A DNA stretch of 64,000 bases from Haliangium sp. (GCF_050303215.1 NZ_JBNLBH010000019.1:1-64000); one strand, 5' to 3'. Shown: positions 1 through 64,000, numbered from the stretch's first letter. Notes: generated from the sequence alone by a model not told the origin. Made by a program: numbers and translations.

Positions 1-95
1 TGCACCGTTGCGATGTCATCACGTCCTGAAGGCGATCACCCTCGTTGATGGACATCGCTGAGCTGCTCGCCCGCGTGCAATCGTCGCGATGTCCA

Positions 96-1502
96 TCAGC
101 TACCCTGCTCGCCCTCGCATCGAATAGCCTGCTTCGTAACAATCTCATACGGGAACATCAGCCGTGAGACGTAGCGGGTATCCTTCAGCGCATTAATAAT
201 CTTGCTCTCACCATAAGCGTGAATAGGCCAGCTCTTGCCGTTACGTTCACAGATGTAGATAGACTCGTCCGGCTTTTCCTCCTCTCGCCAGTCATACAGC
301 TTGTAGCTGGTTCGCTCGGCCTCATCTACGGCGACGTAGAAGTCAACCAATGTGGCATCAACATGGGCGATGCGCTTACAGGTGAGATCACGAGCTTTGG
401 CTATCAGCTCTAATGACTGCTTGGGCTTAGCCGGTAACTGTATTGTCTTTGGTAGACGGCGCTCGTAGAGTCGCCGAGAAAGATCTGAAAGGATCGGGTC
501 CGGGTGCCCTCTCCATTCGTCAACGAGGACCCAGACGTGGAATTCGCCCAAGTGGGAATATGTCTCAAGGTCGCACTGTCCACCTGTGTCGAAAAATCGC
601 TTCAATGGATGACGTCGGTCTCGCGTTGAGAATACATCTTTGTCTCCATTGCTTGCCAGCATGACGGCACGACGAAGGACGGAGGTCAGAAGCACGCTCG
701 CAGCCCGCACGGTGTGATGGAAGTAGATGGCTCGATACATTTGATCCAAAGCGACCAAATATCCCTCGACGGTTTCCAACCCCTTGCGATCCACACCGAC
801 CAATTGTCCATCCACATGCCGCAGCATATCCAAAAGACGAGCTAAATCGTAAGTATGGCCGCGAAGTCCGCATGCCGCTGCATCGCGCAGCAGATAATCG
901 AGCCGATCTGCATCGAGCTGACTCGACACTAATTTGTGACTCCAATGTGGTTTCTTTACCTTCTTACTAATATACTCGGCGACGCGTTCGGGAAAGGTCT
1001 GATCGACATGGCCCAGAGTCTCGGCGACAACCGACTCTCTGATGATACGCAAGGTCATCGCTTCGTGAGCGAACTCGATCCCTAGAACATCGAGAGCCTC
1101 CTCGAGAGTATGCGAGAAGGGACCGTGTCCGATGTCGTGCAGCAGTCCTGCCGCACATGTCGCCAGCCGGGTCTCGTCATCGGGCTCTTCACCCATGTTG
1201 CGGCAGATGCGATCGTACATCTCGCCGGCCAGATAGGCCACACCCATCGAGTGACTGAAACGTGAGTGCTCGGCGCCATGGAACACTAAATTGGTCAACC
1301 CGTTCTGACGGATGTGCCGTAGCCTCTGGAAGACTGGGGTGTCGATAAGCCGCTGCATCACCCAGCCGAAGCGCTTGTCACCGAATGCTGGTGAAGGGAT
1401 GTGCCGTTCGTCTTCGACCCGCTCGTAGCGAAGCTGCAAGTGTACTGGGTCGCGGAATAGACGAGGTGCTTTCTCGAATGCCATCCCGGTTGCATCATAC
1501 AC
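96..1502 (-). CDS. HD-domain phosphohydrolase, dGTP triphosphohydrolase (Dgt)-like
   Basis: 468-aa ORF with HD motifs H..HSRFSHSMGV, LLHDIGHGPFSH and DADRLDYLLRD, typical of the dGTPase family. Local GC is about 50-55% against about 70% for the rest of the window. Start could be M at 1502 or 1484. Confidence 0.8.
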   Translation of the reverse strand: MYDATGMAFEKAPRLFRDPVHLQLRYERVEDERHIPSPAFGDKRFGWVMQRLIDTPVFQRLRHIRQNGLTNLVFHGAEHSRFSHSMGVAYLAGEMYDRICRNMGEEPDDETRLATCAAGLLHDIGHGPFSHTLEEALDVLGIEFAHEAMTLRIIRESVVAETLGHVDQTFPERVAEYISKKVKKPHWSHKLVSSQLDADRLDYLLRDAAACGLRGHTYDLARLLDMLRHVDGQLVGVDRKGLETVEGYLVALDQMYRAIYFHHTVRAASVLLTSVLRRAVMLASNGDKDVFSTRDRRHPLKRFFDTGGQCDLETYSHLGEFHVWVLVDEWRGHPDPILSDLSRRLYERRLPKTIQLPAKPKQSLELIAKARDLTCKRIAHVDATLVDFYVAVDEAERTSYKLYDWREEEKPDESIYICERNGKSWPIHAYGESKIINALKDTRYVSRLMFPYEIVTKQAIRCEGEQGS

Positions 1503-1822
1503 ACCGCCTCCGACAATCTCGCTAGCGGAACTACCTGCGGCGGTCGTTCCACTGCTGACTGAATCGCTCTCACCCCCGTCAGATAGGCACCTGAGATACT
1601 CTGGAAGAGCGGCCGCTCCTTTTGTTGCAGTTGGGGGTTACATCGCTCAAGCGCCTGTGTCCAAGCTGACACACGTGTCGAAACCTTCGTGACGCAGCGC
1701 GGCATCCAGCCACAACTCAACGCGAGCTCCGAGGGTGTGAGTGCTTTCACTGGCCCGAAGTTGCCGCACGCCGTCGCCGCGTCGGCCGCGCGCTCCAGCC
1801 CCGGGACGACCAGGCGGCTGCG

Positions 1823-2050
1823 CCGACTCACCCTGGTCCGACGACGGCACCAGGCCAAGGATGCCTTGGATGTCGGCCGCCGGGCCGGACTTGGGTCCAA
1901 GGGGGAGGCGTTCCAGCAAGCGTGCGGCCACCTCGGCCACGCTCTCGCCGCCGAGGATGGCCAGTGGCGACAGATCCTTGGACAAGGCGCCGGCACGCTG
2001 CTGCCCGGCCAAGCCCTTGCGGGGCGCGATGAGCTCGTGCTGCAGAGCCC
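1823..2050 (-). pseudogene. Decayed duplicate of the 3' end of the MVP-like gene (about 75 codons); stop codon mutated TAG to CAG
   Basis: 228 bp align colinearly with 2549..2775 at roughly 89% identity. The fragment encodes ...[55 protein letters not shown], matching the MVP-like C-terminus. Nothing protein-like continues upstream in the same frame. Confidence 0.75.
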
Positions 2051-2543
2051 ACCGAGCGAAGAGCCTATCTGGGCAGAGGCGAGGACGGCACAGGCCCGGG
2101 CGAGCCCACGGCCCGAAGGCGGCGTCGTTGTCTGCTCCGACCAACCCAGATCGGACGGAGGGCCGAGACGATGCCGCGATGGGCAGGAGTACAGAGACGA
2201 GTCGGATGCCAGGACAAGGTCGAGACGAGGTGAACGCCGGCAGCCATGGGGGAGAGAGCCGTTGACCGGAGGGAGAGATAGGCGTTCGTGCGAGTCGTCC
2301 GCCGGTAGGGCCGTGGGCTCGTCTGGGCCGGTCCAGCCCAGCAAGCATCGAACCGGCGACGATCGAATCCCGTACACGCGTGTGCCAGCCCGAATTTGCC
2401 CCCGCTGCCATGCCGACTCGTGCGCACAGCAACCGGAACTCGGGCGTCGCACGGTCCATGGTCGACCACGAATAGACGAGAGCCCACCCTGGACCAGAGG
2501 GCTACCCGCCCACGCGCGCGCCAGCCCCGGGCCGAGCAGGCGT

Positions 2544-4577
2544 CTACGCCGACTCGCCCTGGTCCGGCGACGGCACCAGGCCAAGGATGCCTTGGATGTC
2601 GGCCGCCGGGCCCGACTTGGAGCCCAGGGGCAGACGGTCGAGCAAGCGCGCGGCCACCTCGGCCACGCTCTCGCCGCCGAGGATGGCCAGCGGCGACAGG
2701 TTCTTGGACAAAGCGCCGGCGAGCTGCTGCCCAGCCAGGCCCTTGAGGGTCGCGATGAGCTCGGGCTGCAGCGCCTCCATCTGCTCGCGAAAGGCCGCCG
2801 AGCGCGCGGCCAGGGCCTCCCGCGCCAACCCGGCCTCGCGGTCGGCGATCTCGAGCCGAGCCCGGCTGCGGATCGCGTCGGCCTCAGCCTCGTGCTCGGC
2901 CCGGCCGATCTTGTCCAGGCGGTCGCGCTCGATGATGGTCCCGATCCGCGCCAGCTCCACGGTGCGGCTCACGGCCTCGTGCTCGGCCGCCTTGGCCAGG
3001 GTCTCCATCTGGGCGCCGTAGATCTCTCGGTTGACCGACTCCTTGAGGTTCTCGTCGCCCAGTCGCAGCTCCTCCTGCCTGCGCGTGATCGCCGAGACGA
3101 TCGCCATGCGCTGGGCCTCCTGCAGCATGCGCTCGACGTCCTGGTCCAGGATGCGCACGTCGAGCACCTCGACGTCGTAGACCCACATCCCGTTCTCCTT
3201 GAAGTGCCGCCCCTCGCGCTCGCCGTCGTCGCCGCGCGCGCCCAGGATGGCGGTGCGCAAGATGTCAGTGCTGGTGCCGTGGAAGGTCTCGATCGAACTC
3301 GTCCGCGCGGCCGCGCGGATGATCGAACCGAGGTGGTCGCATAGCAGGCCGACATAGTCCTTGACGTTGAACCAGCGCTCGGAGTCGCCCACGAACGACA
3401 CTCGATACGACAGCAGGATCTCGAGCCCGACGTGGTCGGAGGTCTTGACCCGGACCAGGTCCGACACCTTGTTGCCCTGTACCTGCAAGAAGCAGGTGGG
3501 CAAGAGCTCCTCGTCGCTCTTCGGTCGCCCGGTCGATAAGGTCAGAACCTCGAGCTCCTCGTCGTAGTGCAGGATGCGGGTCTGGGGCCCGCTCACCACC
3601 TCGCGCTTGTTCTTGGCCGTGATCATCACCGCTGTGCTCGGGGGCACGTAGATCGACCACGCCCGGTTGGGGTCGCGGCTGTCGGTGTCGAGCCGGAACA
3701 GCACCGCCCGGCGCTCGTCGAGCCGACGCGTGACCAGTTCCTCGCGGGTGGGATCGACCAGGTAGTTCACCGGACCCTCGACGGTGGTGAGCTTGCCCGT
3801 GCCCAACTCGCGCGCGTAGATGGCCTCGTTTTCGGCCAGCGGGATCGGAGCCACCTCGCCCACGACGTCCAGGTTGTCGGAGGGGAAAAACATGCCCTCG
3901 CGGTCGCGCAGGAAGATGTCCTGCCCGGCCAGGTATCGGCCCTCGGGCACCTGCGCGGCGGGGCCGACCTCGAAGGGCGCGCGCACGCGCAGGTGCAGGC
4001 CCTTGTTGCGCTCCATACGCCAGGCCCGGCGCACGTAGCTGCCGTTGCGGTTGGGCACCACCTCCAGGCCGCTGGGCGGGATGTAGAAGCTCACGTCAGT
4101 GCCGCAGATGATGTGCTCGGTGCCGATCGGCTCGCCGTCGCCCATATCGTCGTACACACGGACGACGAGGTACTGGTCCAGGCGCAGCTCGTGGCCGTCG
4201 ATGACCTGGGCCCGCTGCCCGGGCCAGAGCGGGAACTCGGCCGGGCCGGGCACGACGACCTTGCGCCCGAAGCGGAGCGGGATGGCCGAGTTTGCGCCCT
4301 TGACCGGCTTGTCGTCGGGGTCCTGGGGCGGGTTCTCGAGGATGATGTACTGCGATGATGAGGCCGCGACGAACTTGTGTACCCCCAGCCCGGCCTCGTC
4401 GCCGCGCACGGGCACGAAGCGGCCGTCGCGCAGGATGATCATGCGCTCGGTGTTGGACAGGCTGATCTTGGTGGGGCCGACGTAGAGGACGATGTCTCCC
4501 TTGGTGAGGTCCTGCACGTAGGCGTACTCGTTGGGGGCAACCAGGATGTCGCGTTCGCGAATGTCTCGTTCTGCCAT
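2544..4577 (-). CDS. Major vault protein (MVP) homologue: vault repeats, shoulder domain and coiled-coil cap helix
   Basis: Matches human MVP from my recall of its sequence: [29 protein letters not shown] vs [39 protein letters not shown] vs [27 protein letters not shown] vs [55 protein letters not shown] vs [40 protein letters not shown]. N-terminal repeats have the Y.V.D...G..V.VGP pattern and the C-terminus is a long Ala/Glu/Arg coiled coil. Start taken at [12 protein letters not shown] (4577), inside the longer ORF 2544..4649. Confidence 0.85.
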   Translation of the reverse strand: [677 protein letters not shown]

Positions 4578-4722
4578 GGGCCTTGCTCTCCTTGTGGACT
4601 TGCTGCTCACCGGTCTCCAGGCCAAGAGCAAGCACCGTGCCGGCGGCAAGTGCCGGATTTGCCACGGCTACCAGCCCATGCGCGGCGCCGGACGTGTGTC
4701 TTGTTGGTGCACTTGCTCCGAA

Positions 4723-5922
4723 ATGAACCAGCCCCTGCCCAGCGATCCCTCGATCCCCTTGCCGGCCGTCAGCGCCAATGGCATCGTGCGGACGATGGCA
4801 AGCGGACCCACGACCTATTGGGACTACATCAAGGTGGAAGAGCTCCTGGCTCTGCAGACTGGGCTGGAGGACGACGAGGCGGCGCTGTCGAACGATGAGA
4901 TCATGTTCATCGTCGTGCACCAGATCGACGAGCTTTGGTTCAAGCTGGCCATTCGCGAGCTGGTGTCGGTGCGCGATCTGTTCGCCCAGGAGCACGTCCG
5001 CGAGCAGTCACTGGCCACGGCCGTGCGCGGCATCCGACGGGCCGCGCTGCTGTTCCAGCAGGCCGCCGGGCACTTCGCGCTGATGGAGACCTTGACCACC
5101 CGTGACTACCTGGCGTTCCGCGACAAGCTCAGCCCGGCCAGTGGGTTCCAGTCGGCCCAGATGCGCGAGATCGAGATCATCATGGGCCTGGGCGAGGCCG
5201 AGCGCCTGCCCTTGGGGCACGAGACCTATCAGCAGGCGCTGCGCTACCCGGATGGCTCCGGCTCGCCGGCGTCGCGCCGGGTCGAGCGCCGACTCCACGA
5301 TCGCCCGAGCCTGCGCGAGGCCATCGAGGCCTGGCTGCATCGAACCCCCATCGACGGCTCGGTGCCGGACGGCCCAGATGACGCCGCGCGCGTCACCGCC
5401 TTCATCGACGCGTTCTTGGCCGCCCAGCGGGACGAGATCAACGAGATCAAGACCCGCGCCATGGACAACGCGCTCACTGAGCAAGACCGGGAGCGGCTCG
5501 ACAAGCGCTATCAGGGCGAGCTCGCGGCGGCGCGGTCGTGGCTCGAAGCCCGCGATGTGGAGGTCGGCGACGATGAGTCCCGGCGTGCCTATCGCTCGCG
5601 CGTGCGCGCGGCCTTGGTCTTCATCGAGAGTTACCGCGAGCTGCCGCTGCTGGCCTGGCCGCGCGAGGTCATCGACGCCATCGTGGCCCTGGAGCAGGCG
5701 TTTACGATCTTCCGCCAGCGTCACGCTCGTATGGTCGAGCGCGTCATCGGCCGCCGCACCGGCACCGGAGGCTCGGCCGGGGTCGCCTACCTGGATCAGA
5801 CCGCGCTCGCCTACCGGGTGTTCAGCGACGTCTGGGCCACTCGCACCGTGCTGCTCCGCCGCGCAGTGCTGCCCCCGCTGCGACACCCGGAGCGCTACGG
5901 CTTCGCCGACGCGGACGAGTGA
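4723..5922 (+). CDS. kynA: Tryptophan 2,3-dioxygenase (eukaryote-like long form)
   Basis: TYWDYIKVEELLALQ and DEIMFIVVHQIDELWFKLAIREL match the TDO N-terminal helices. C-terminal RHARMVERVIGRRTGTGGSAGVAYL matches the TDO GTGGSSG motif. The first 64 codons of the ORF (4531..) are Arg/Ser-rich junk, so start moved to MNQPL. Confidence 0.88.
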   Translation: MNQPLPSDPSIPLPAVSANGIVRTMASGPTTYWDYIKVEELLALQTGLEDDEAALSNDEIMFIVVHQIDELWFKLAIRELVSVRDLFAQEHVREQSLATAVRGIRRAALLFQQAAGHFALMETLTTRDYLAFRDKLSPASGFQSAQMREIEIIMGLGEAERLPLGHETYQQALRYPDGSGSPASRRVERRLHDRPSLREAIEAWLHRTPIDGSVPDGPDDAARVTAFIDAFLAAQRDEINEIKTRAMDNALTEQDRERLDKRYQGELAAARSWLEARDVEVGDDESRRAYRSRVRAALVFIESYRELPLLAWPREVIDAIVALEQAFTIFRQRHARMVERVIGRRTGTGGSAGVAYLDQTALAYRVFSDVWATRTVLLRRAVLPPLRHPERYGFADADE

Positions 5923-34400: not shown

Positions 34401-35644
34401 AACACGGCCGCACAGAAGCGCGCGCTGGTCGCGGCCAGGAGCCCACCCAGCTCGCCGATTTCGCGCCCCACCAAGCCGAGATCGACCTCGGGTTCGAACA
34501 GTACCACTCCGGCCCACCGACGCTGATTCGACGACGATATCGGCGCCGGGTCTTCGGTGCGGGCCCGGCGCGAAGCCCCCGGGCTCGAGTTGGGACGCTC
34601 GGACCATGCTGTCGCCGCGGCCTCCGCGGTCGAGGCCGCGGCGGCGCTCGCCCGCGTCGAGCGGGAGGCTGCGTCCAGGGCCGGGAGCAGCGCCGCACGC
34701 AGCTCGGCGACCGAGCCGAAGCGGCGATCGGGACGCTTGGCCAGGCACCGCTGCAGCACGTCGAGCACAGCCTCAGATCGCACCAGACCGCCGTGCAACG
34801 AGGGCGGACGGCGGTACATGTGGGCCATGCGCACGCTCGACGCGTCCCCCACGAACGGCGGCTCGCCCGCGATCATCTCGTAGCCCATGATCCCCAGCGA
34901 ATAGATGTCGGCGCGGGAGTCCACCCGTCCCAGCCCTTCACACTGCTCGGGGGACATGTACGCCGGGGTCCCCAGGATCATGCCCGGCACGGTCTGCACC
35001 GGCGTCCCCGGCGCCACGACCAACGACTTGGCCAGGCCGAAATCGATGAGCTTGGCCACCGCCGGCGTCTCCACCGGCTCGGGGCCGGGCGCCGCCAACC
35101 CGCGGCTCACGAAGATGTTCTGCGGCGACAGATCGCGGTGGGCGAAGCCGCACCCATGAGCGGCCTCGACGGCGTCGAGGATCGGACCCAGCAACGCCGC
35201 CATGGTCGCCGCGGCCAACGGCGCACCCAGAACCCGATCCAGCGTCGGCATCGTCAGCCGCTCGATCACCAAGTACGGGCGTCCATCGTCGAGTACGCCC
35301 CGGCCGTACAGAGCAGGCACGTAGGGTGGTCCGATGGCGCTCAAGGCCTGGGCCTCGGTCTCCAGGCGCACACGCGCCGTAGGGTCCTCGCGGTGCACCA
35401 CCTTGATGGCCACGGGCAGCCCATCGGCCTCGCGTGTGGCCGCGAGCACGGTCGCGAAACCTCCCTGTCCAAGGCGACCATCGATCCGATACCCAGCGAC
35501 CGATAGGGTCACAGCGACGTCGACGTGATTGGCTTCACCCTGCATGTCTACCCGACTAGGTCTACCCAACTGGCCGAACGCGCTCCCGAAACCAGACACG
35601 TGGCCAGCGCCGCCATTATCTCTACGATTCCCGTTTTGGGTCAA
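31496..35644 (-). CDS. Ser/Thr kinase - AAA/NACHT-like ATPase - TPR multidomain regulator
   Basis: Kinase motifs LGQGGFATV, VAIKVV, HRDLSPQNIFV, DFGLAK. Walker A GLGKSHLAATLS. A long TPR/SLR-like C-terminal region. Confidence 0.85.
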   Translation of the reverse strand: MTQNGNRRDNGGAGHVSGFGSAFGQLGRPSRVDMQGEANHVDVAVTLSVAGYRIDGRLGQGGFATVLAATREADGLPVAIKVVHREDPTARVRLETEAQALSAIGPPYVPALYGRGVLDDGRPYLVIERLTMPTLDRVLGAPLAAATMAALLGPILDAVEAAHGCGFAHRDLSPQNIFVSRGLAAPGPEPVETPAVAKLIDFGLAKSLVVAPGTPVQTVPGMILGTPAYMSPEQCEGLGRVDSRADIYSLGIMGYEMIAGEPPFVGDASSVRMAHMYRRPPSLHGGLVRSEAVLDVLQRCLAKRPDRRFGSVAELRAALLPALDAASRSTRASAAAASTAEAAATAWSERPNSSPGASRRARTEDPAPISSSNQRRWAGVVLFEPEVDLGLVGREIGELGGLLAATSARFCAAVFYGTEAQPPVAAASAAAQALIERGVAVRVIVDRDQVRSMRSRRGVERVVGVNTGKAAVLLRGTLPAAVLLSRQAAEAVAPAAVVALPGRDDLVRVRAGSGEVVSMVGLGADGPLLGRDQVLAELVDSATECARERRPGLCTILAETGLGKSHLAATLSRTLSERDPKLCVLTLHARPRVGDQGARILGTLVASILREASEQVTPGVEVLLARLERVLGATSWPALALVCGWLSADEPALAKLRAAPSVLRRTAAQAAGELLCRLAARAPVCLVLDDGHMSDGITLDALEYATRAEVAAPLWVAVFAQPKLTQTRQHWGRRAASRREVTLGALADEDAAALCRRLLHPARDVPTQVVARLVAQTQGNPLLLTELARGIQRQGLIRRHDRGKAWFLAADELGELLDLPGIAWLVERELGALSPALAAHARLLSLLGASFTLAEVEGVLHELERDGLGDEFPLDAEVGCGLLREQGLLVDRGQRAFWFRHALFREQIVRLIPAPLTLSIHAAAGRYYEHASGLGEARRRPLLAYHAAQAGLRERAIGLYVELADTMRDHHDYVEAAELYSRALELIAASGVDPVRPRAAGIPAAVAQPCLRALRGRGLMHYRQSRFDDAVADLCAAAELAESLGVVHVRAAILLDQATALDWRRDFAASRACVDEARAIAPAGDSLLEARLALALGRAHHRAEDDATAVVHLEEAARRGGALGELGYEPRVIALLLLGYIYPSLHEIERAQAVFETCIALCEEHGDRLHLAAALSNRCELWNWQNQPERSARDMRRAESIGREIGQLSVEYVTARNLAELYYYTGDLVAVEAPLGRAGELEPITGDKPMMPLLSARLGVFAGDPERAREGLARVRAAEARARAEHNHSGQLGEAEEVIVQAVELAVEGAGEAAWHAVLVRAEAALGEVDSIDVMDMMAWTLHRRGEANAARQMWRQAHARSLAAGHVIEARLRRRVAAGDD

Positions 35645-35938
35645 CGGGGTATCAACGCGTCATCCACATGTGATGCCCAATCCAATCAAACTTGGCCATC
35701 TAGACCTGGATCAGAAAAACCCTGACGGATCCAGGCCACGCCCCCCGTATCTCGGTCGCAAAAAGCAAAGAACATGTTATGGTACATGTCAAACACTTCG
35801 TTGAATACTGTTGAATACTGTCGATAGACGCTCGAGCACGGGGGATCGCTCAGCGAGCCCGATCTACCAACGGTGGCCCGGGATGGGACGGTTGCGACCG
35901 CCGTGCACCGTATGACAAGTCTTATATGGAGCCAATGA
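35645..35938. promoter_or_regulatory. AT-rich divergent intergenic region between the STPK-AAA-TPR gene and the RCC1 lipoprotein gene, holding candidate operator repeats
   Basis: GC drops sharply. Tandem ttgaatactg x2 at 35801..35820. Palindrome aacatgtt at 35771..35778 with a second acatgt 6 bp later. Confidence 0.5.
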
Positions 35939-38848
35939 ATGCGACCACATCGACCTTTGGCGGGGCCTATGAAACCCGACTGCCAGGCTCGAATCGAGCC
36001 GCGGCGGCGCAGGCACGACGGGAGATACGCCGGCGCAGCCCTGCTGGCGTGGGTCGCGCTGGTCGCGTGCCGGCCGGCAGAGAACCCGCCCGCGTCCGCA
36101 TTCGCGGGCGAGGTCGAGCACAACCGCGCCGCGCTCGCTCAGCTCTCCAACGGCCTGAGCCAGAACAACCTCGGCCCCAACGGGATCGCGTTCAACCACG
36201 TCAACCCCAGCGGCCTCGCCTTCAACGGCGTGCAGCTCAACCTCGCCTCCCTCAACCTCGCCTCCCTCAACCTCGCCTCGCTCAACCTCGCCTCCCTCAA
36301 CCTCGCCTCCCTCAACGGCGCCGTCTATGAGGACATCTGGCTGAACACGCTCTCCTTCGACGCCGAGGCCATGAGCAACGCGTCTCTCAACGCGGCCTCC
36401 CTCTCCGACGCCACGTTGAGCACGATGAAGATCGACGGGCAGCCCATCAGCGCGCTCGAGGCCGACGACGTCGAGAACATCATCAAGTACCTGGCCGAGT
36501 GCGCCCTCGTCGTGGGGCAGTGCGTCACCGTCACCCGGCTCGACGGCACCACCCAGGACTATTGTGGCTTGGAAGGACACGATCCCACCTGGAACGTGAA
36601 CGTGCCCGATTTGACCAAGTCCGCCGACATGGGCGAGTGCTTCGTCCGTCGCGCCGGCGCAGACGGTCACACAGCCACCCACGAGCCGTGGAACATCGAG
36701 GCCACCAAGATTCTGCTCCAGTACATGGTCGAGTGCGCCCTTTCTCCCGGCCAAAGCGCTACCATCTACGACATCGACGGTGTCACCCCCATGGTGTTCG
36801 AGGGCTCGCTCGGGCTGGCCCCGAGCTGGCGTGACGGCGCGCCCACCTCCGTGGAGCAGCGCAAGGTGTCGGCGTGTCTGGCGGCGCGCTCCAACGCCAA
36901 GGGCAAGAAGGTGCGGATCTCGCTGCGGGGCTCGGGCATCACCACGTCCGCGGTCGAGCGCGCCCACTTCGATACCCACGAGGGCGCGTTCTGGGGCGAC
37001 GTGTTCGGCCCCACCCCCGAAATCCACACTTGCATGGTCACCGGCGGCGGGCTGTCGGGGCGCACCTGCACCGAGGGCGACTGCGGCTTCCGCTCGTTGG
37101 GCGACTGCGCCGACGTGTGCAGCCAGCGCGACCCGGTCGATCTCGCCTACGGTGACTGCGACGGCGAGTCGGCCGTGATCAACACCTTCCTCGATCTGGG
37201 CCAGGAGCTGGCCTTCGGCGACGAGCACAACTGCTTCATTCGCAACGACGGCACGCTGTGGTGCTGGGGCAAGAACAACCTCGGTCAGCTCGGCCTGGGC
37301 TTCGTGTCCGACTTCGAACCCTACCCGCTCCAGGTCATGACCCTGAGCGGCGCCGTGGCCGAGGTCTCGGGCGGCTGGCGCCACACCTGCGCCCGCACCA
37401 CCAGTGGCGATGGGTACTGCTGGGGCCTGAACAGCAAGGGGCAGCTCGGTGACGGCACCATCGTCGACCGCTCCAAGCCGACCTACGTCTCCGCCCTGAG
37501 CAGCGACGTCGCCGCGATCTCGGCCAACGACCGCCATAGCTGCGCCCGCCGCACCGACGGCACCCTACACTGCTGGGGCAACAACGACTTCGGTCAGGTC
37601 GGCGACGGCAGCGGCGTCGACCAGCCCCTGCCGGTGCCGGTGAGCGCGCTCGGCAACCAGGTCTCGGAGCGCTCGCTGGGCTCGCGCTCGCGCTCGAGCT
37701 GCGCCATCACCATCAGCGGCGATCTGTACTGCTGGGGCCGAAACGACTACGGTCAGGTCGGCGACGGTAGCCTCGTCGATCGCCTCGTCCCGGTGGTCGT
37801 GGACCAGGACGCCGGCGGCGGTGCCTTCGGCGCCGTGACCGACGTCTGCGGCGGCGAGGCCCACACCTGCGCGCGCCGCAGCGACGGCACGGTGTGGTGC
37901 TGGGGTCAGGATTCCCAGTACCAGATCGGCGCCGGCGCCCCGACCCTGAGCCCCCGCCCCCGACCGGTCCAGACCGCGTTCCCGGGCTTCGCCGCGCCCG
38001 GCGGCCTGTCCTGCGGACGCGACCACACCTGCGCCATCCGCGACGACGGGGCCTTGTTCTGCTGGGGCGCAAACGATTTCGGCGAGGTCGGCGACGGCAC
38101 CTCCAGCCCGGCCGAGATCCCGACCCAGGTCACCGCCCTCGGCACCGACGTCGAGCTGGTGACCTGCCAGGGCGAGACGAGCTGCGCGGTGAGCTTTGAC
38201 GGCACCCTGTCGTGCTGGGGCCGAGATACGCACGCGCTGCTGTTCCCGGGTTGGTCCTCGTCGGTGCCGGTCGTCGTCGACCTGGCCTGCAACCACAACG
38301 CGGTGTGCGAGCCCGAGCACGCGGAGTCCTGTGACACCTGCGCCGCCGACTGCGGCGTGTGCGACACCGCTCGGGTGTCGCTGGCCCCGAGTGACGACAC
38401 CGAGGCCCGGGCCAAGAAGCCCGACACCAGCTACGGCGGGCAAGACCCGATCACGAGCGTGGCCTCGGCCCTCGCCGAGGAGCGCTTGCTGCTGCGCTTC
38501 GACCTCTCCGCCGCCCCCGGCTCCAGCGTGAGCCAAGCCATCCTGCGCCTGTACTCCAACGACCCCAGCGGGGTGTGCGACTTGGTGCGGATCGACGACG
38601 ACGGCTGGAGCGAAGACACCCTCACCTGGAACGACATGCCGGCGCCCGGGGTCAGCCTCGGGGCGGTGAGCGGCGTGGCCGGCGGCTGGGTGTACGTAGA
38701 CGTCACCGACTACGTCAGCGACGAGTACGCCGGCGACGGCGTGGTCAGCTTCGCCTGCGTGGCCCAGTCCGGCACCTTCTCCATCGCCTCCAAGGAAGAC
38801 GCTGCGCCCGCGGTTCATCCGGTCCTCGATGTGGACGTCACGCCATAG
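35939..38848 (+). CDS. Secreted lipoprotein: pentapeptide-like repeats, 7-bladed RCC1 propeller, C-terminal DNRLRE domain
   Basis: Lipobox LVAC. Pentapeptide-like 5-residue periodicity GIAFN/GLAFN/GVQLN/(LASLN)x5. Six RCC1 signatures such as WCWGKNNLGQLGLG, YCWGLNSKGQLGDG and HCWGNNDFGQVGDG. C-terminal LRLYSNDPSGVCDLVRIDDDGWSEDTLTWNDMP matches the DNRLRE domain. Confidence 0.85.
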   Translation: MRPHRPLAGPMKPDCQARIEPRRRRHDGRYAGAALLAWVALVACRPAENPPASAFAGEVEHNRAALAQLSNGLSQNNLGPNGIAFNHVNPSGLAFNGVQLNLASLNLASLNLASLNLASLNLASLNGAVYEDIWLNTLSFDAEAMSNASLNAASLSDATLSTMKIDGQPISALEADDVENIIKYLAECALVVGQCVTVTRLDGTTQDYCGLEGHDPTWNVNVPDLTKSADMGECFVRRAGADGHTATHEPWNIEATKILLQYMVECALSPGQSATIYDIDGVTPMVFEGSLGLAPSWRDGAPTSVEQRKVSACLAARSNAKGKKVRISLRGSGITTSAVERAHFDTHEGAFWGDVFGPTPEIHTCMVTGGGLSGRTCTEGDCGFRSLGDCADVCSQRDPVDLAYGDCDGESAVINTFLDLGQELAFGDEHNCFIRNDGTLWCWGKNNLGQLGLGFVSDFEPYPLQVMTLSGAVAEVSGGWRHTCARTTSGDGYCWGLNSKGQLGDGTIVDRSKPTYVSALSSDVAAISANDRHSCARRTDGTLHCWGNNDFGQVGDGSGVDQPLPVPVSALGNQVSERSLGSRSRSSCAITISGDLYCWGRNDYGQVGDGSLVDRLVPVVVDQDAGGGAFGAVTDVCGGEAHTCARRSDGTVWCWGQDSQYQIGAGAPTLSPRPRPVQTAFPGFAAPGGLSCGRDHTCAIRDDGALFCWGANDFGEVGDGTSSPAEIPTQVTALGTDVELVTCQGETSCAVSFDGTLSCWGRDTHALLFPGWSSSVPVVVDLACNHNAVCEPEHAESCDTCAADCGVCDTARVSLAPSDDTEARAKKPDTSYGGQDPITSVASALAEERLLLRFDLSAAPGSSVSQAILRLYSNDPSGVCDLVRIDDDGWSEDTLTWNDMPAPGVSLGAVSGVAGGWVYVDVTDYVSDEYAGDGVVSFACVAQSGTFSIASKEDAAPAVHPVLDVDVTP
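36236..36310 (+). repeat. Perfect in-frame 15-bp x5 tandem repeat (ctcaacctcgcctcc; one C/G variant) encoding (LASLN)x5
   Basis: Read directly from the sequence; lies inside the RCC1 lipoprotein gene. Confidence 0.9.
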
Positions 38849-53704: not shown

Positions 53705-55018
<1,314 letters not shown>

Positions 55019-55039
55019 GATGATAAGCCTCCTCAGGTC

Positions 55040-57970
<2,931 letters not shown>

Positions 57971-58180
57971 AGTTTTGCTACTCCCAGTTCGTCTGATGCA
58001 TTGGGGACTGCGACGCGATGCGGCCTACCCTATCCCAGATTTGGGCCACGTTGCCAAGTCCTTGCACCCAAGTGAATAGGTGACAGACCGCCGAAAATGC
58101 GGTGGATGGCGCTAGGATCGACCTAAATTCAGTAATTCGACTTACCAGCTAACGCGAAGCCGACACATGACGCAGCGCGC

Positions 58181-58287
58181 CCCGACACCTGCGGTTCGGT
58201 CAGGTCGAGCTGCTCACCAGACACTGCCCACAACGTTGGCAAGTACGGCACCCGACACCTGCGGTTCGGTCAGGTCGAGCTGCTCAC
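58181..58287. repeat. 37-bp perfect direct repeat x2 (cccgacacctgcggttcggtcaggtcgagctgctcac) separated by 33 bp
   Basis: Copies at 58181..58217 and 58251..58287. The second copy contains the tsaE stop codon. Each copy holds an acctg/caggt inverted repeat. Confidence 0.9.
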
Positions 58288-58761
58288 AGCATCCGCCCAG
58301 GCCGTGGCCAGCACACCTCCGCGCCGGCCGTGTCCGATCGCCGAGACCCGACGCGCGTGCGCACCCGCGATATCGAGCCGGATCTCGAGAAAGTCGCGGC
58401 CCAGCACCGGATAGCGATCGCACCACTCGACGCACACAACGCCGTCGGCGCGGCGGCAGATCTCGTCGAGGCCGAGCTCGTCGAGATCGCGCGCGCGATC
58501 GATGCGGTACAGGTCGACGTGATACAGCGACACGGCGCCGCCGTGGTACTCGTTGATCAGGGTGAAGGTCGGGCTCGTCACTCGAACCTCGGGCGGGATC
58601 CGCAGGCCGCGGGCCAGGGCCTGGACCAGCAGCGTCTTGCCCGCGCCCAGCTCGCCGATCAAGCCGATGAGGTCGCCGGGCTGCAGCAGCTCGGCCAAGC
58701 GCCCGGCGAGTTCCGCCGTGGCCTCCGGAGTCGAGCACAGGTGATCGCGCAGCTCGGCCAT
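58270..58761 (-). CDS. tsaE: tRNA threonylcarbamoyladenosine biosynthesis ATPase TsaE
   Basis: GELGAGKTLLVQALARGL P-loop, a TSPTFTLINEY motif and LYHVDLYRI, characteristic of TsaE/YjeE. Confidence 0.8.
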   Translation of the reverse strand: MAELRDHLCSTPEATAELAGRLAELLQPGDLIGLIGELGAGKTLLVQALARGLRIPPEVRVTSPTFTLINEYHGGAVSLYHVDLYRIDRARDLDELGLDEICRRADGVVCVEWCDRYPVLGRDFLEIRLDIAGAHARRVSAIGHGRRGGVLATAWADAVSSST

Positions 58762-58954
58762 CGAGGGCCACCAAGGTACGTCAAAGTCGGCACTTGCGCA
58801 CTCTTTGTTGCGATCTCTTTGCGCGGAGCAGACCCGAGCAGCTTTGGTTCCAATATCGCACGCTCCGGATTGGACAGCGGACGCCGAAGTCGGTCGTACC
58901 GGGGCCCATTTCGCGTGATCGTGGCCAATTTCGGCTTGAATCCGATCCGATCGA

Positions 58955-60037
<1,083 letters not shown>

Positions 60038-60157: not shown

Positions 60158-62164
60158 ATGCGCGTCTGCAGTTGGCTGCTCCCGTGCGTGCTCGCGAGCG
60201 CGTGCGGCTCGGCGCCGGAGCCCGAAACAACCCCGCTGCCGGCGCCCGACCTGCGCCCGCCGCTGCTGGACGGGGTGCCGCGCTCACCGCGCCTGGCCAA
60301 CTACCGCATCGACGCCCGCCTCGACGTCGACACCTGGCAGGTCGACGCCCGCCAGACGTTGACCTGGACCAACTCGTCTCAGCGCCCGGTCGAGCGCCTG
60401 CCCTTTCACCTGTACATGAACGCCTTCGAGAGCGAGGCCACGGTGTTCATGCGCGAGGCCCAGGGCCAACACCGCCGGGCCCGGGCCTCGGACACCGGCT
60501 GGGGCTGGATCGACGTGGACCGGGTGGCCGTGGCCGGCCGCGACCTGAGCGCCGCGCTGCGCACGCCCGGCCCCGACCGCACCGTGGTCGAGCTGGTGCT
60601 GCCCGAGCCGGTGGCCCCGGGCGCCCAGATCGAGGTCGAGATGGACTTTCGGGTCCAGTTCCCGGAGGTGTTCGCGCGCACGGGGCACAAGGGCTGGTTC
60701 CTGATGGCCGGGCAGTGGTTCCCCAAGATCGGCGTGCTCACGGGCCCGCCCGGGACCGAGCGCTGGCGCTGCGAGCCGTTCCACCTGATGAGCGAGTTCT
60801 TCGCCGATTTCGGCACCTACGACGTCGCCCTCACCGTGCCCGACACGCTCGTGGTCGCGGCCACCGGGGTGCTGCAGGCGGCCGAGGACCACGGCGATGG
60901 CACCCGCACCCTGCGCTACCGGGCCGAAGACGTGCACGACTTCGCCTGGATGGCCGACCCGTTCATGCAGGTCGTGCGCGGCCAGGCCGAGACCGAGCTG
61001 GGCCAGGTCGAGGTCCGGGTCTATCACCGGCCCGGCCAGGAGGCCTTCGCGCGCCGCCACCTGCAGGCCGGGATCGGCACCATCGAGGTGCTCAGCCGCT
61101 GGCTCGTGCCCTACCCGTGGCCGATCATGAGCATCATCGACCCGCCCCCGGACGCGACCGCGGGCGCCGGTGGCATGGAGTACCCGACCCTGGTGACCAC
61201 GGCCGGGGACATGCCGCTGATGCGCCCGGGCGTTCGCCTGCCCGAGTTCATCACCGTGCACGAGGTGGGGCACAACTGGTTCCAGGGGATCCTGGCCTCG
61301 AACGAGGTCGAAGAGGCCTGGCTCGACGAGGGCGTCAACGACTACGCCGACGCGGTGGTCATGGACGAGCTTTTCGGCGAGCGCACCAGCGGCATCGACT
61401 GGAACGGGCTGCACGCGCGCTGGGCCGAGCTGTCCAGCGCCGGGGCGGGTGGCTTTGCACACCTGCCGGTGCCGATCGCGACCCGCTCGTACGAATTCCC
61501 CGATTTCGGCGCCTACGGGGCCGCGACCTACCGCAAGACCGCGGCCGCGCTGGCCACGCTCGAACGGACCGTGGGGCGTGAGCCGTTCCGGGCCGCCATG
61601 CGCGCCTACGCTCAGCGCTACGGGTTCCGACACCCCACCGGCGAGGAGTTCTTTGCCGCGCTGGAACAGGCGCTGGGGCAAGAGCTCGACTGGTTCCTGG
61701 ACCCGGCCTTCCGCCAGGTCGGGGACGCGGCGTTCGCGGTCCGTGAGGTCAACTGCCGCGCCGGGCACGAGCTGCGCGGGGCGTTCCCGCGTGACGACGG
61801 GGACGGTGAGCGCCGGGTGGTGTCGCGGGAGCAGGCCCCGGACCGGGACGACTGGGTGTGCGAGGTGCTGGTGGTGAATACCGGCGCGGTGTCGGTGCCG
61901 GTGGAGGTCGAGATCGAGTTCGATGACGGCGCGCGCCTGCGCGAGCGCTGGGACACGGCCGGGCACCAGCGCTGGCAGCGGTGGCGGATCGCGCACAGCG
62001 CCCGGGTCGCGCAGGTGGTCGTGGACCCGGACCGGCAGGTGTTGCTGTACGATGGGTCGCGGCGCGGTACCTGGCGTCGGGTCGGCGACGGCAGCGCGTC
62101 TTGGCGGGTGGGGGCACGGCTGGGGTACTGGGCGCAAACGCTGATGCAGGTGCTGGGACCATGA
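60158..62164 (+). CDS. M1-family (gluzincin) metallopeptidase lipoprotein
   Basis: Lipobox LASACGS. GGMEYP exopeptidase motif, HEVGHNWFQG zinc-binding HExxH, and downstream WLDEGVNDY providing the third zinc ligand Glu. Confidence 0.82.
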   Translation: MRVCSWLLPCVLASACGSAPEPETTPLPAPDLRPPLLDGVPRSPRLANYRIDARLDVDTWQVDARQTLTWTNSSQRPVERLPFHLYMNAFESEATVFMREAQGQHRRARASDTGWGWIDVDRVAVAGRDLSAALRTPGPDRTVVELVLPEPVAPGAQIEVEMDFRVQFPEVFARTGHKGWFLMAGQWFPKIGVLTGPPGTERWRCEPFHLMSEFFADFGTYDVALTVPDTLVVAATGVLQAAEDHGDGTRTLRYRAEDVHDFAWMADPFMQVVRGQAETELGQVEVRVYHRPGQEAFARRHLQAGIGTIEVLSRWLVPYPWPIMSIIDPPPDATAGAGGMEYPTLVTTAGDMPLMRPGVRLPEFITVHEVGHNWFQGILASNEVEEAWLDEGVNDYADAVVMDELFGERTSGIDWNGLHARWAELSSAGAGGFAHLPVPIATRSYEFPDFGAYGAATYRKTAAALATLERTVGREPFRAAMRAYAQRYGFRHPTGEEFFAALEQALGQELDWFLDPAFRQVGDAAFAVREVNCRAGHELRGAFPRDDGDGERRVVSREQAPDRDDWVCEVLVVNTGAVSVPVEVEIEFDDGARLRERWDTAGHQRWQRWRIAHSARVAQVVVDPDRQVLLYDGSRRGTWRRVGDGSASWRVGARLGYWAQTLMQVLGP

Positions 62165-63213
62165 CCGCCGGACGCGCCACGCTGGGGGGCATGATCGGGG
62201 CCGGATGGGCCGCGGCCCGGCGCCGCTGGGGGCTGGTGCTGGGGTTGGGCGCGGTGCAGGTGGTGTGGGGCGCGGGCGCGGCGCTGATGATGAGCTGGAT
62301 CGTGGCCGCAGGGTGGGCGCGAAGCCCTTTGCTCGACCGGGCGGTGGCCGGCGACGTGGTGAGTCTGGTCCAGGTCGTGGCCGAGACCCCAGAGCTGTTC
62401 GCGGCGGCGCTGGGGGTCGGGGTCGGGGCGGTCGCGGTGTACGCGGTGTGGTCGTGGTTCTTGCTCGGGGGGCTGAACGCGGTGCTGCTGGGGGATGTTC
62501 TTGGGCGTCGGGTGGGTGACCGGGTGTCCGGGTCGGGCGACCGAGATGTCGACCGAGCGTCCGGGCCGGGTCGGGAGTCGGTGGCCGAGCGTCGGCTGCG
62601 CCAGCGCGCGCTGGCTCGGGAGTTCGGCGCGGGCGGGGCGGTGTCCTTCACTGCCTATCTGCGCTTGGCGCTGTGGTCGTTGATCCCGCTGGGGCTGGCG
62701 GGGGTGGTCGCCGGGGTCGGGCTGTACGCGATCCGTGATCGGGCGGAGCTCGCGGTCGAGATGGTCGCGCTGGTGGGCTGGGGCGGCGCCGGGCTGGTCC
62801 CGGCGCTGGCGCTGGTGGCGGTGACCTGGGCCGCGGTGGATTACGCCCGGGTGGAGCTGACGGCGCGCGCGCTGGCCGAGCCGGGGGCACGGCTGGCGGC
62901 GCGGCGGGCGCTGCTGCGTGGCTACGGGGCGGTGACGCGGGACTGGCGGCCGCTGGTGCACCTGTCTGGGTTTGGGCTTGGGTTCTTGGTGGTCACGGCG
63001 CTGGCAGGGCTGGTGGGCGCGGGGCTGAGCGCGGTGGTGGCGCTGTGGATGGTTCGGCAGGTGGCGGTGGTGATGCGTACGGGTCTGCGGGTGATGCTGG
63101 CCGGGGGGCAGGTCTGGTACGCAAACGAGGTCCGGCTGATCTCGCCGGTGGTCGCGGGGTCAGGCTCGCCCGATGAGGGGCGGGGTGCGATTTCGGGAGC
63201 AGATGAGACATGA
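62161..63213 (+). CDS. Hypothetical integral membrane protein (6-8 TM)
   Basis: ATG overlaps the peptidase stop (ATGA at 62161). Hydrophobic helices throughout. Confidence 0.6.
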   Translation: MTAGRATLGGMIGAGWAAARRRWGLVLGLGAVQVVWGAGAALMMSWIVAAGWARSPLLDRAVAGDVVSLVQVVAETPELFAAALGVGVGAVAVYAVWSWFLLGGLNAVLLGDVLGRRVGDRVSGSGDRDVDRASGPGRESVAERRLRQRALAREFGAGGAVSFTAYLRLALWSLIPLGLAGVVAGVGLYAIRDRAELAVEMVALVGWGGAGLVPALALVAVTWAAVDYARVELTARALAEPGARLAARRALLRGYGAVTRDWRPLVHLSGFGLGFLVVTALAGLVGAGLSAVVALWMVRQVAVVMRTGLRVMLAGGQVWYANEVRLISPVVAGSGSPDEGRGAISGADET

Positions 63214-64000
63214 CGGATATGAGTGGACCGCGGGTGGGCGTGATCGGCACCAACTGGGGCCGGATGCACATCGGGGGGTTCCGCGCGGCGGGGGCCCTGG
63301 TCGCGGGGATCTGTGGGCGCGATCGGGACAAGACCGCCGGGATCGCGCGCGACGAGGACATCGCGCTGGCGACGACGCGGGTGGAGGAGCTGTGCGCGGC
63401 GGTGGATATCGCGGTGGTGTCAGGGCCGGATGGGCTGCACCGGGAGCACATCGAGGCCGCGCTGACGGCGGGGTGTCACGTGCTGAGCGAGAAGCCAATC
63501 ACACGCACGGCCGACGACGCGCGCGCGCTGGCGGCGCTGGCGCAGGGGTTCGAGGCCCGGGGGCGGGTGTGCGCGGTGAGCTTTCCCTATCGGATGAGCC
63601 CGCCGGTGGTCGCGCTGGATGAATGGCTGGGGGCGCCCGGGCGGGGCCCGGGAGAGTGGCTGACGGTGACGCTGCGGTCGAGCTTCGCGGCCGCCGAGGG
63701 GCGGGCGCAGGAGGGGCCGCTGATGGGGGTTTCGGGGGATTTCGGCGGGGCGTCCCACGTGCTGGACGCGGCGTTCTGGCTGATGCGAGGACGGCCGGCC
63801 TGGGTCGAGGCCGTAATGATGGGGCGGCCGGCGCACTCGCTGTGTCTTCATATCGGGCTCGACACGGGCGCGATGGTGTCGGTCAATCACTTGGCGTCGC
63901 ATGACCCGGGGATCGTGGGAGAGTGGCACTTGATCGGGGCGGGCTGGGAGGCTCGGTTCACGGGGGAGTATCGGCCCTGGGCGCATGGATGGCGGATCGG
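63210..64000 (+). CDS. Gfo/Idh/MocA-family NAD(P)-dependent oxidoreductase (3' partial; runs off the window)
   Basis: Own translation gives MTDMSGPRVGVIGTNWGRMHIGGFRAAGA (Rossmann GxGxxG) and HVLSEKPITRT (EKP motif). ATGA overlap with the upstream stop. Absent from the ORF track because there is no in-window stop. Confidence 0.75.
   Translation, partial: MTDMSGPRVGVIGTNWGRMHIGGFRAAGALVAGICGRDRDKTAGIARDEDIALATTRVEELCAAVDIAVVSGPDGLHREHIEAALTAGCHVLSEKPITRTADDARALAALAQGFEARGRVCAVSFPYRMSPPVVALDEWLGAPGRGPGEWLTVTLRSSFAAAEGRAQEGPLMGVSGDFGGASHVLDAAFWLMRGRPAWVEAVMMGRPAHSLCLHIGLDTGAMVSVNHLASHDPGIVGEWHLIGAGWEARFTGEYRPWAHGWRI

Follow-up and report, generated by a model that had tools for sequence, protein, structure and literature searches.

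The window analysed here, a 64,000-nucleotide (nt) stretch of Haliangium sp. DNA (GCF_050303215.1, NZ_JBNLBH010000019.1:1-64000), holds near its left end an intact minus-strand gene (96..1502; the HD gene below) that is predicted to encode an HD-domain deoxynucleoside triphosphate (dNTP) triphosphohydrolase of the SAMHD1/EF1143 (YwfO) type. In the reading that we favour, to which a probability of roughly 0.55 was assigned, it is a recently transferred, intact dNTPase of a mobile, defence-island-associated clade, imported not long ago into the Haliangium chromosome, where it now lies just downstream of a gene resembling that of the major vault protein (MVP).

Foreign composition and horizontal acquisition

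The guanine-plus-cytosine (GC) content of the whole window was 70.3% and that of bases 1-1650 was 55.2%, with every other 1-kb bin at or above 62%. The coding sequence (CDS) of the HD gene had 54.5% GC (0.63, 0.40 and 0.61 at the first, second and third codon positions, respectively). Its third-position value (GC3) stood at z = -11.8 relative to 18 other genes of the window (0.902 +/- 0.025), and its codon adaptation index (CAI), calculated on the window's own codon usage, was 0.34 as against 0.62-0.79 for the other genes. The dip is real, lies far outside the gene-to-gene scatter and is seen at all three codon positions. Binned GC and codon-adaptation analysis thus bore out the foreign, low-GC composition claimed for the gene in the first-pass annotation, and the gene can be told apart from its neighbours in both GC and codon usage.

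In a search of 5.8 billion proteins the best non-self homologue was 59% identical, and the homologues that followed the self-match came from a Kofleriaceae metagenome-assembled genome (MAG), Sorangium, Microvirga, Planctomycetota and metagenomes. In Sorangium a homologue matches its host in GC3 (0.88), which shows that the gene is not inherently low in GC. Among 13 non-redundant close-clade loci, no flanking family was common to the loci beyond the gene pair described below and its antisense shadow open reading frames (ORFs), and no homologue of the MVP-like gene or of the tryptophan dioxygenase gene beside it was found in 92 related loci (713 kb). A Band_7 gene near two homologues was considered as a counterpart of the MVP-like gene, which would imply synteny, and was rejected on finding no relationship by BLASTP. 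Horizontal acquisition of the HD gene is well supported by these sequence comparisons, because its GC3 and CAI are aberrant, its nearest homologues are 59% identical and its flanks share no synteny with theirs.

The foreign tract leaves the window at its edge and a single junction is visible, as would be the case if foreign DNA had been joined to a Haliangium contig in metagenome assembly or binning. Such an artefact is very improbable, since the same protein was present in two assemblies (contigs of 149,091 and 149,096 bp), the nearest homologues are also from Myxococcota (Kofleriaceae, Sorangium), and the GC change is graded, rising in steps of 0.58, 0.62 and 0.73 through the intergenic junction, with neither an N-run nor a repeat between the low-GC tract and the host-like DNA.

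Family assignment of the protein

The ORF is uninterrupted and counts 468 amino acids (aa) from a GTG. The start is probably the ATG at 1484, which gives 462 aa, because an alignment of 37 homologues opens at residue 7 and the RefSeq protein WP_428261842.1 (Haliangium sp.) has 462 aa; residue numbers below follow the 468-aa version. Pfam HD (PF01966) matched with 41.2 bits (cut-off 22, E 2.3e-10) and HD_assoc_2 (PF19276) with 33.6 bits (cut-off 23.1). Together with the uninterrupted ORF, these matches upheld the earlier view of a real, intact gene of the HD-domain dNTPase superfamily.

The top solved relative by sequence was E. faecalis EF1143 (2o6i; E 2.5e-55, residues 48-422), followed by two uncharacterised bacterial HD proteins and then by fungal, nematode and human SAMHD1 (E ~1e-21 to 1e-24, the human match at ~1e-21). 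Matches to the Thermus dNTPase and to the defensive dGTPase of Shewanella (9p8w) were marginal, at 18-19 bits. The AlphaFold model of the protein (predicted local distance difference test (pLDDT) 86.9) superposed full-length on EF1143 (3irh) with a template-modelling (TM) score of 0.80-0.85 over ~460 columns at 33% identity; BT4208 and SAMHD1 ranked next (TM ~0.66), and no Dgt structure was present within the model's top 50 structural matches.

Profiles for Dgt and for anti-phage dGTPases scored far below their cut-offs. TIGR01353 (Dgt) gave 38.8 bits against 152.35 and the PRK Dgt equivalogs 15-30 bits against 385-511; the anti-phage dGTPase models NF041026 and NF003701 gave 30.1 bits against 400 and 23.1 against 383, respectively, all of these NCBIfam matches being confined to residues ~50-156, and the PADLOC dGTPase model gave 43.5 bits over residues 49-156 only. 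An anti-phage dGTPase (Tal et al. 2022) was taken as a protein that is at least 25% identical to Sp-dGTPase across 90% or more of the length, or that scores above the curated cut-off; the match to Sp-dGTPase (9p8w) was 18.2 bits over ~100 residues, without a significant stretch. Of the earlier label 'dGTPase-like', membership of the HD dNTPase superfamily was retained, whereas the more specific part was replaced by the SAMHD1/EF1143 branch, the Dgt and anti-phage dGTPase cut-offs being missed by an order of magnitude.

The predicted metal ligands H84, H122, D123 and D199 align with EF1143 H66, H110, D111 and D183, and the predicted catalytic dyad E134/H146 with EF1143 E122/H129, residues for which metal-ligand and proposed catalytic-dyad roles have been described (PMC3190883). 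All six were invariant in a 38-sequence alignment of the family. In a direct alignment with full-length human SAMHD1, D54, Q59 and R62 align with D137, Q142 and R145, the guanine-pocket residues of allosteric site A1, which are kept in SAMHD1-like, and not in Dgt-like, prokaryotic dNTPases (PMC7854603). Because of the EF1143 and SAMHD1 matches, the conserved functional residues and the full-length fold, and because the Dgt cut-offs were missed by far, sequence and model assign the window protein to the SAMHD1/EF1143 (YwfO; COG1078)-type HD dNTP triphosphohydrolases, and to neither the Dgt-type nor the Tal-type dGTPases. The gene is a new member of an already known enzyme family, and its product is predicted to be catalytically intact and active on dNTPs.

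An HD hydrolase of this kind might act on another substrate, either other nucleotides or nucleic acid: no activity has been assigned to 2q14 and 2hek, which are among the closest solved relatives, and EF1143 was noted to be weakly active as a nuclease and to carry a C-terminal 'handle' that looks DNA-binding (PMC3190883). Given that the metal, dyad and guanine-site residues of characterised dNTPases are all kept, and that the full-length fold matches dNTP-bound EF1143, there is little likelihood of this.

The YwgA-like partner gene

A gene of ~170 aa (named YwgA by JGI) followed the HD gene on the same strand, a few bases apart, in 7 of 8 close loci. When metagenomes were searched with the partner alone, 47 of the 49 testable YwgA loci (those with at least 1.4 kb of upstream sequence) had an HD homologue immediately upstream in the same orientation. 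The pair was also found by contig scan in at least 28 more distant loci, nearly all Firmicute, with the matches listed all at or below 40% identity; the Firmicute pair (loci L012-L076) is of the B. subtilis ywfO-ywgA type. Since relatives nearly always carry a YwgA-like gene directly downstream, the term 'stand-alone', used of such dGTPases in the first-pass annotation, is probably wrong for this clade. No description of YwgA or of an HD-YwgA system was found in the literature searched, and the pair is not described as a system in PADLOC 2.0.

The only two testable loci with a YwgA-like gene and no upstream HD gene (L098 and L127) may be partner swaps. At four further loci (L100, L102, L104 and L126), the stop-to-stop ORF bearing the YwgA-like part extends far back into the HD gene, which indicates HD-YwgA fusions or frameshifted assemblies.

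Partners in relatives matched DarG models only at positions ~168-315, corresponding to the C-terminal domain (PADLOC DarG, positions 168-305 of 329, E 1.3e-11; NCBIfam NF048014, positions 188-315 of 338, E 2.8e-9). For the AlphaFold model of the partner (pLDDT 96.2), the only significant PDB matches were the DarG chains of M. tuberculosis DarT-DarG 7YK3 (probability 1.00, TM 0.59-0.66), with PadR-type winged-helix proteins far behind. It is through its C-terminal domain that DarG binds DarT and blocks this toxin. Searching PDB sequences with a profile of the partner returned only designed-repeat noise. Identification of the partner as a nucleotidyltransferase (as in Clover) or as Pfam DUF4065 was rejected, as only weak PadR/Replic_Relax winged-helix matches were obtained.

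To the left of the HD gene the window holds 95 bases, in which the start of a downstream ORF and an RNA hairpin were recognized (Table 1). The 5' arm of the hairpin has the HD stop codon (98-96) and the 3' arm the AUG (55-53) of the downstream ORF; its minimum free energy is -29.8 kcal/mol (z = -2.0), with 6 of 200 shuffles folding equally well. This is a modest indication that the hairpin may give translational coupling, and hence that the two form an operon. By comparison with the relatives, the partner would have an inhibitory role, and one may be present in this genome.

The pair could instead be a selfish toxin-antitoxin (TA) or addiction cassette, in which the HD enzyme would arrest growth as a toxin and the downstream protein would act as the antitoxin, the pair stabilising mobile DNA and not protecting the host. 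The order, toxin then antitoxin-like gene, the fold of the partner, that of the DarT-inhibiting DarG domain, and the presence of one copy (L091) on an integrative element are consistent with this, and in a computational survey of TA systems 99.7% of S. aureus genomes were credited with an 'HD domain' group. An addiction module, however, would not usually be a stable core locus, as this pair is in Firmicutes; the partner is still a candidate in the window genome, and toxicity and neutralisation are putative. We consider such a cassette improbable. The toxin-antitoxin and defence roles are compatible and not mutually exclusive.

Genomic context of relatives and the case for defence

Context was compared over 14 close-clade loci with usable flanks, two of which (L106 and L131) were not annotated individually. 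Six or seven of them, about half, were in or beside known defence systems. The L001 gene was beside an Hma system (HmaC, 1440 bits; DUF1156 methylase), with genes for an SMC-like ATPase and for a type II methyltransferase, and in Sorangium (L086) the HD-YwgA pair was found between PglX and BrxC/BrxB/BrxE of a BREX locus. L083, L084 and L093 were immediately preceded by a type IIG/DrmMI-like methyltransferase and followed by SNF2 or HKD-SNF2 helicases; DruA was present at L084 as well. A PLD-ResIII-DUF3427 protein was encoded at L095 and an SNF2 protein at L094, and L091 was carried on an element with Prim-Pol/AAA_25, ParA, DUF5131 and HTH_17. A recurrent order, type IIG/DrmMI-like methyltransferase, HD-YwgA, a few small ORFs and SNF2/HKD-SNF2 helicase, was observed in L083, L084 and L093 (also L094); there the pair seems to sit within a DISARM-like locus. 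For their dGTPase family, Tal et al. (2022) took 53% co-location with defence systems as evidence of defence, compared with 10% for distant homologues.

The main rival is a housekeeping role, in which the enzyme would regulate or sanitise the dNTP pool, as proposed for EF1143/YwfO in Firmicutes, and would merely have been transferred, with no immune role. EF1143 is a dGTP-activated dNTPase tied to dNTP-pool regulation (PMC3190883), and in 20 genera of Firmicutes the HD-YwgA pair keeps its synteny, three flanking families being common to 17 of 20 loci, an arrangement that resembles a core housekeeping locus. These points weigh against a defence role, and others do so too. The visible (upstream) flank of the HD gene is an ordinary myxobacterial chromosome, with no defence gene, integrase or transfer RNA gene in the 64-kb window, and 4-6 of the 14 close-clade loci are in unremarkable contexts (L087, L088, L089 and L118; L106 and L131 account for the range). 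At least one close homologue (L089) has no YwgA-like partner, and the 18 visible codons of the downstream ORF in the window gave no match to the YwgA profile. Close relatives were absent from 2.9 million viral contigs (IMG/VR), and in the literature searched no member of this branch was shown by experiment to defend bacteria. By tblastn against phage and plasmid sequences only distant relatives were retrieved (at most 45% identity), mainly Firmicute EF1143-like genes in unannotated phage-labelled records; the other matches were to chromosome-sized records filed as plasmids and to alphaproteobacterial plasmids.

On the other side, the composition of the HD gene is extremely unameliorated, the close clade is without any synteny, its rate of co-location with defence systems is near the 53% of Tal et al., and one of its loci is on a mobile element. 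A housekeeping role of the transferred gene is on this balance unlikely. A defence role in this genome is plausible, by analogy with the genomic context of the relatives; the proposal of an acquired defence or accessory gene thus stands well as to acquisition, and only indirectly as to defence, given the ordinary chromosomal genes in the visible flank.

In the proposed defence reading, the HD enzyme would, as its most likely function, conditionally hydrolyse dNTPs to deoxynucleosides and triphosphate, and the loss of dNTPs would starve replicating phage DNA. Guanine-nucleotide allostery would gate the enzyme and, where a YwgA-like partner exists, so would the bound inhibitor or regulator protein. 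A more specific version is put forward tentatively, as clearly the less probable of the two: that the HD-YwgA cassette is an uncatalogued, toxin-antitoxin-style immune module acting by nucleotide depletion, in which the partner silences the dNTPase until infection, with the window copy freshly transferred.

Comparison with known systems

The window protein shares with EF1143 and B. subtilis YwfO full-length homology, the H..HD..D metal site and the E/H dyad, and in many members a YwgA-like gene is located downstream. It differs in belonging to a separate clade, 45-59% identical internally and 32-40% identical to the Firmicute proteins, which is without conserved synteny and often found in defence islands; the window copy is also foreign in composition. 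Human SAMHD1 can be aligned with it, has the triad D137/Q142/R145 at the positions of D54/Q59/R62, has a similar fold by TM score, and is expected to be alike in chemistry and antiviral logic. In contrast to SAMHD1, the window protein has neither a SAM domain nor the eukaryotic C-terminal regulatory tail, and a separate small protein appears to regulate its relatives.

With the Sp-dGTPase family (Tal et al. 2022) and E. coli Dgt it has in common the HD dNTPase superfamily, the proposed nucleotide depletion and, in the close clade, a similar rate of co-location with defence; it belongs to a separate branch, and Dgt-like enzymes are without the guanine A1 triad (PMC7854603). Clover likewise consists of two genes, a dNTPase effector (CloA) being restrained by a dedicated partner (CloB). 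CloA has ~33% overall amino-acid homology to, and the same overall HD fold as, SpdGTPase (9p8w), a protein to which the window enzyme has no more than a marginal match. CloB, a Pol-beta nucleotidyltransferase, makes p3diT, whereas the partner of the relatives is a winged helix-turn-helix/helical, DarG-C-terminal-like protein with no nucleotidyltransferase motif, and no nucleotidyltransferase was found beside the HD gene in the window or in the relatives, where the partner is YwgA-like. DarTG and Panacea (DUF4065) also pair an effector with a binder, in that order, and the partner of the relatives shares sequence and fold with the DarT-blocking C-terminal domain of DarG. They differ in that the effector here is an HD hydrolase, with no macrodomain, no DarT ADP-ribosyltransferase and no Pfam DUF4065 match.

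The MVP repeat and other features of the window

The claim that the HD gene adjoins a rearranged locus was confirmed by a direct repeat of 263 nt (1787-2049 and 2513-2775; 89% identical, spacer 463 nt) that duplicates the 3' end of the MVP-like gene (Table 1). The foreign tract begins at most ~290 nt from the left end of the displaced copy. Both copies have a host-like GC of 0.73, so the low-GC DNA was not their source, and an attachment site delivered by an island was rejected as an identity for the repeat.

Table 1. Features at the left end of the window, by position.
Feature	Position	Strand	Basis or remark
Low-GC (55%) segment of foreign composition; left end beyond the window	1..1650	.	GC profile, codon usage
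Downstream ORF, first 18 codons MSINEGDRLQDVMTSQRC, cut by the window edge	2..55	-	Starts 40 nt past the HD stop codon
RNA hairpin, 13-bp stem UGAUGGACAUCGC / GCGAUGUCCAUCA	46..98	-	Inverted repeat
HD-domain dNTP triphosphohydrolase gene, predicted SAMHD1/EF1143 (YwfO) type	96..1502	-	ORF call, Pfam, structure-database sequence match, AlphaFold model
Upstream intergenic/junction region, GC 0.62, separating the foreign gene from the repeat copy at 1787	1503..1786	.	
Displaced copy of the final 232 nt of the MVP-like CDS and 31 nt downstream; GC 0.73	1787..2049	-	89% identical to 2513-2775
Second copy of the 263-nt repeat, with the functional 3' end of the MVP-like gene (2544..4649)	2513..2775	-	

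The right flank, upstream of the HD gene, contains among others genes for the MVP-like protein, tryptophan 2,3-dioxygenase, a Ser/Thr kinase-TPR protein, MscS, aconitase and a UvrD-like helicase. The MVP-like gene (2544-4649, minus strand) encodes a bacterial protein of 701 aa with the major-vault-protein shoulder domain (E 8e-29) and vault repeat domains, and adjoins the tryptophan 2,3-dioxygenase gene (4531-5922). Neither a sigma-70-type promoter nor an intrinsic terminator was found in window positions 1-2800. Milder GC dips against the 70% background were present at 35001-36000 (0.63) and 54001-59000 (0.65-0.68), and might be other acquired or atypical genes. At the far end, positions 62001-64000 showed a strong strand asymmetry (GC skew +0.28 to +0.29, AT skew to -0.40) with only two short tandem repeats.

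Implications

Taken alone, the HD gene shows with textbook clarity how a high-GC myxobacterial chromosome has recently gained a gene by horizontal transfer. The wider pattern is the more useful, in that a SAMHD1-like, as opposed to Dgt-like, dNTPase nearly always comes with a DarG-C-terminal-like protein, and one clade of the pair occurs within BREX, Hma and type IIG/SNF2 loci. As a form of nucleotide-depletion defence the cassette may be new and, if this is true, the branch, which can be aligned with SAMHD1 and retains the guanine-site triad, would be nearer prokaryotic kin of this human restriction factor than the dGTPases so far proven to be defensive. According to Tal et al., the distance between their defensive dGTPases and SAMHD1 is too great to settle whether SAMHD1 descends from a bacterial dNTPase; as the present branch aligns directly with SAMHD1, the question of its descent becomes testable.

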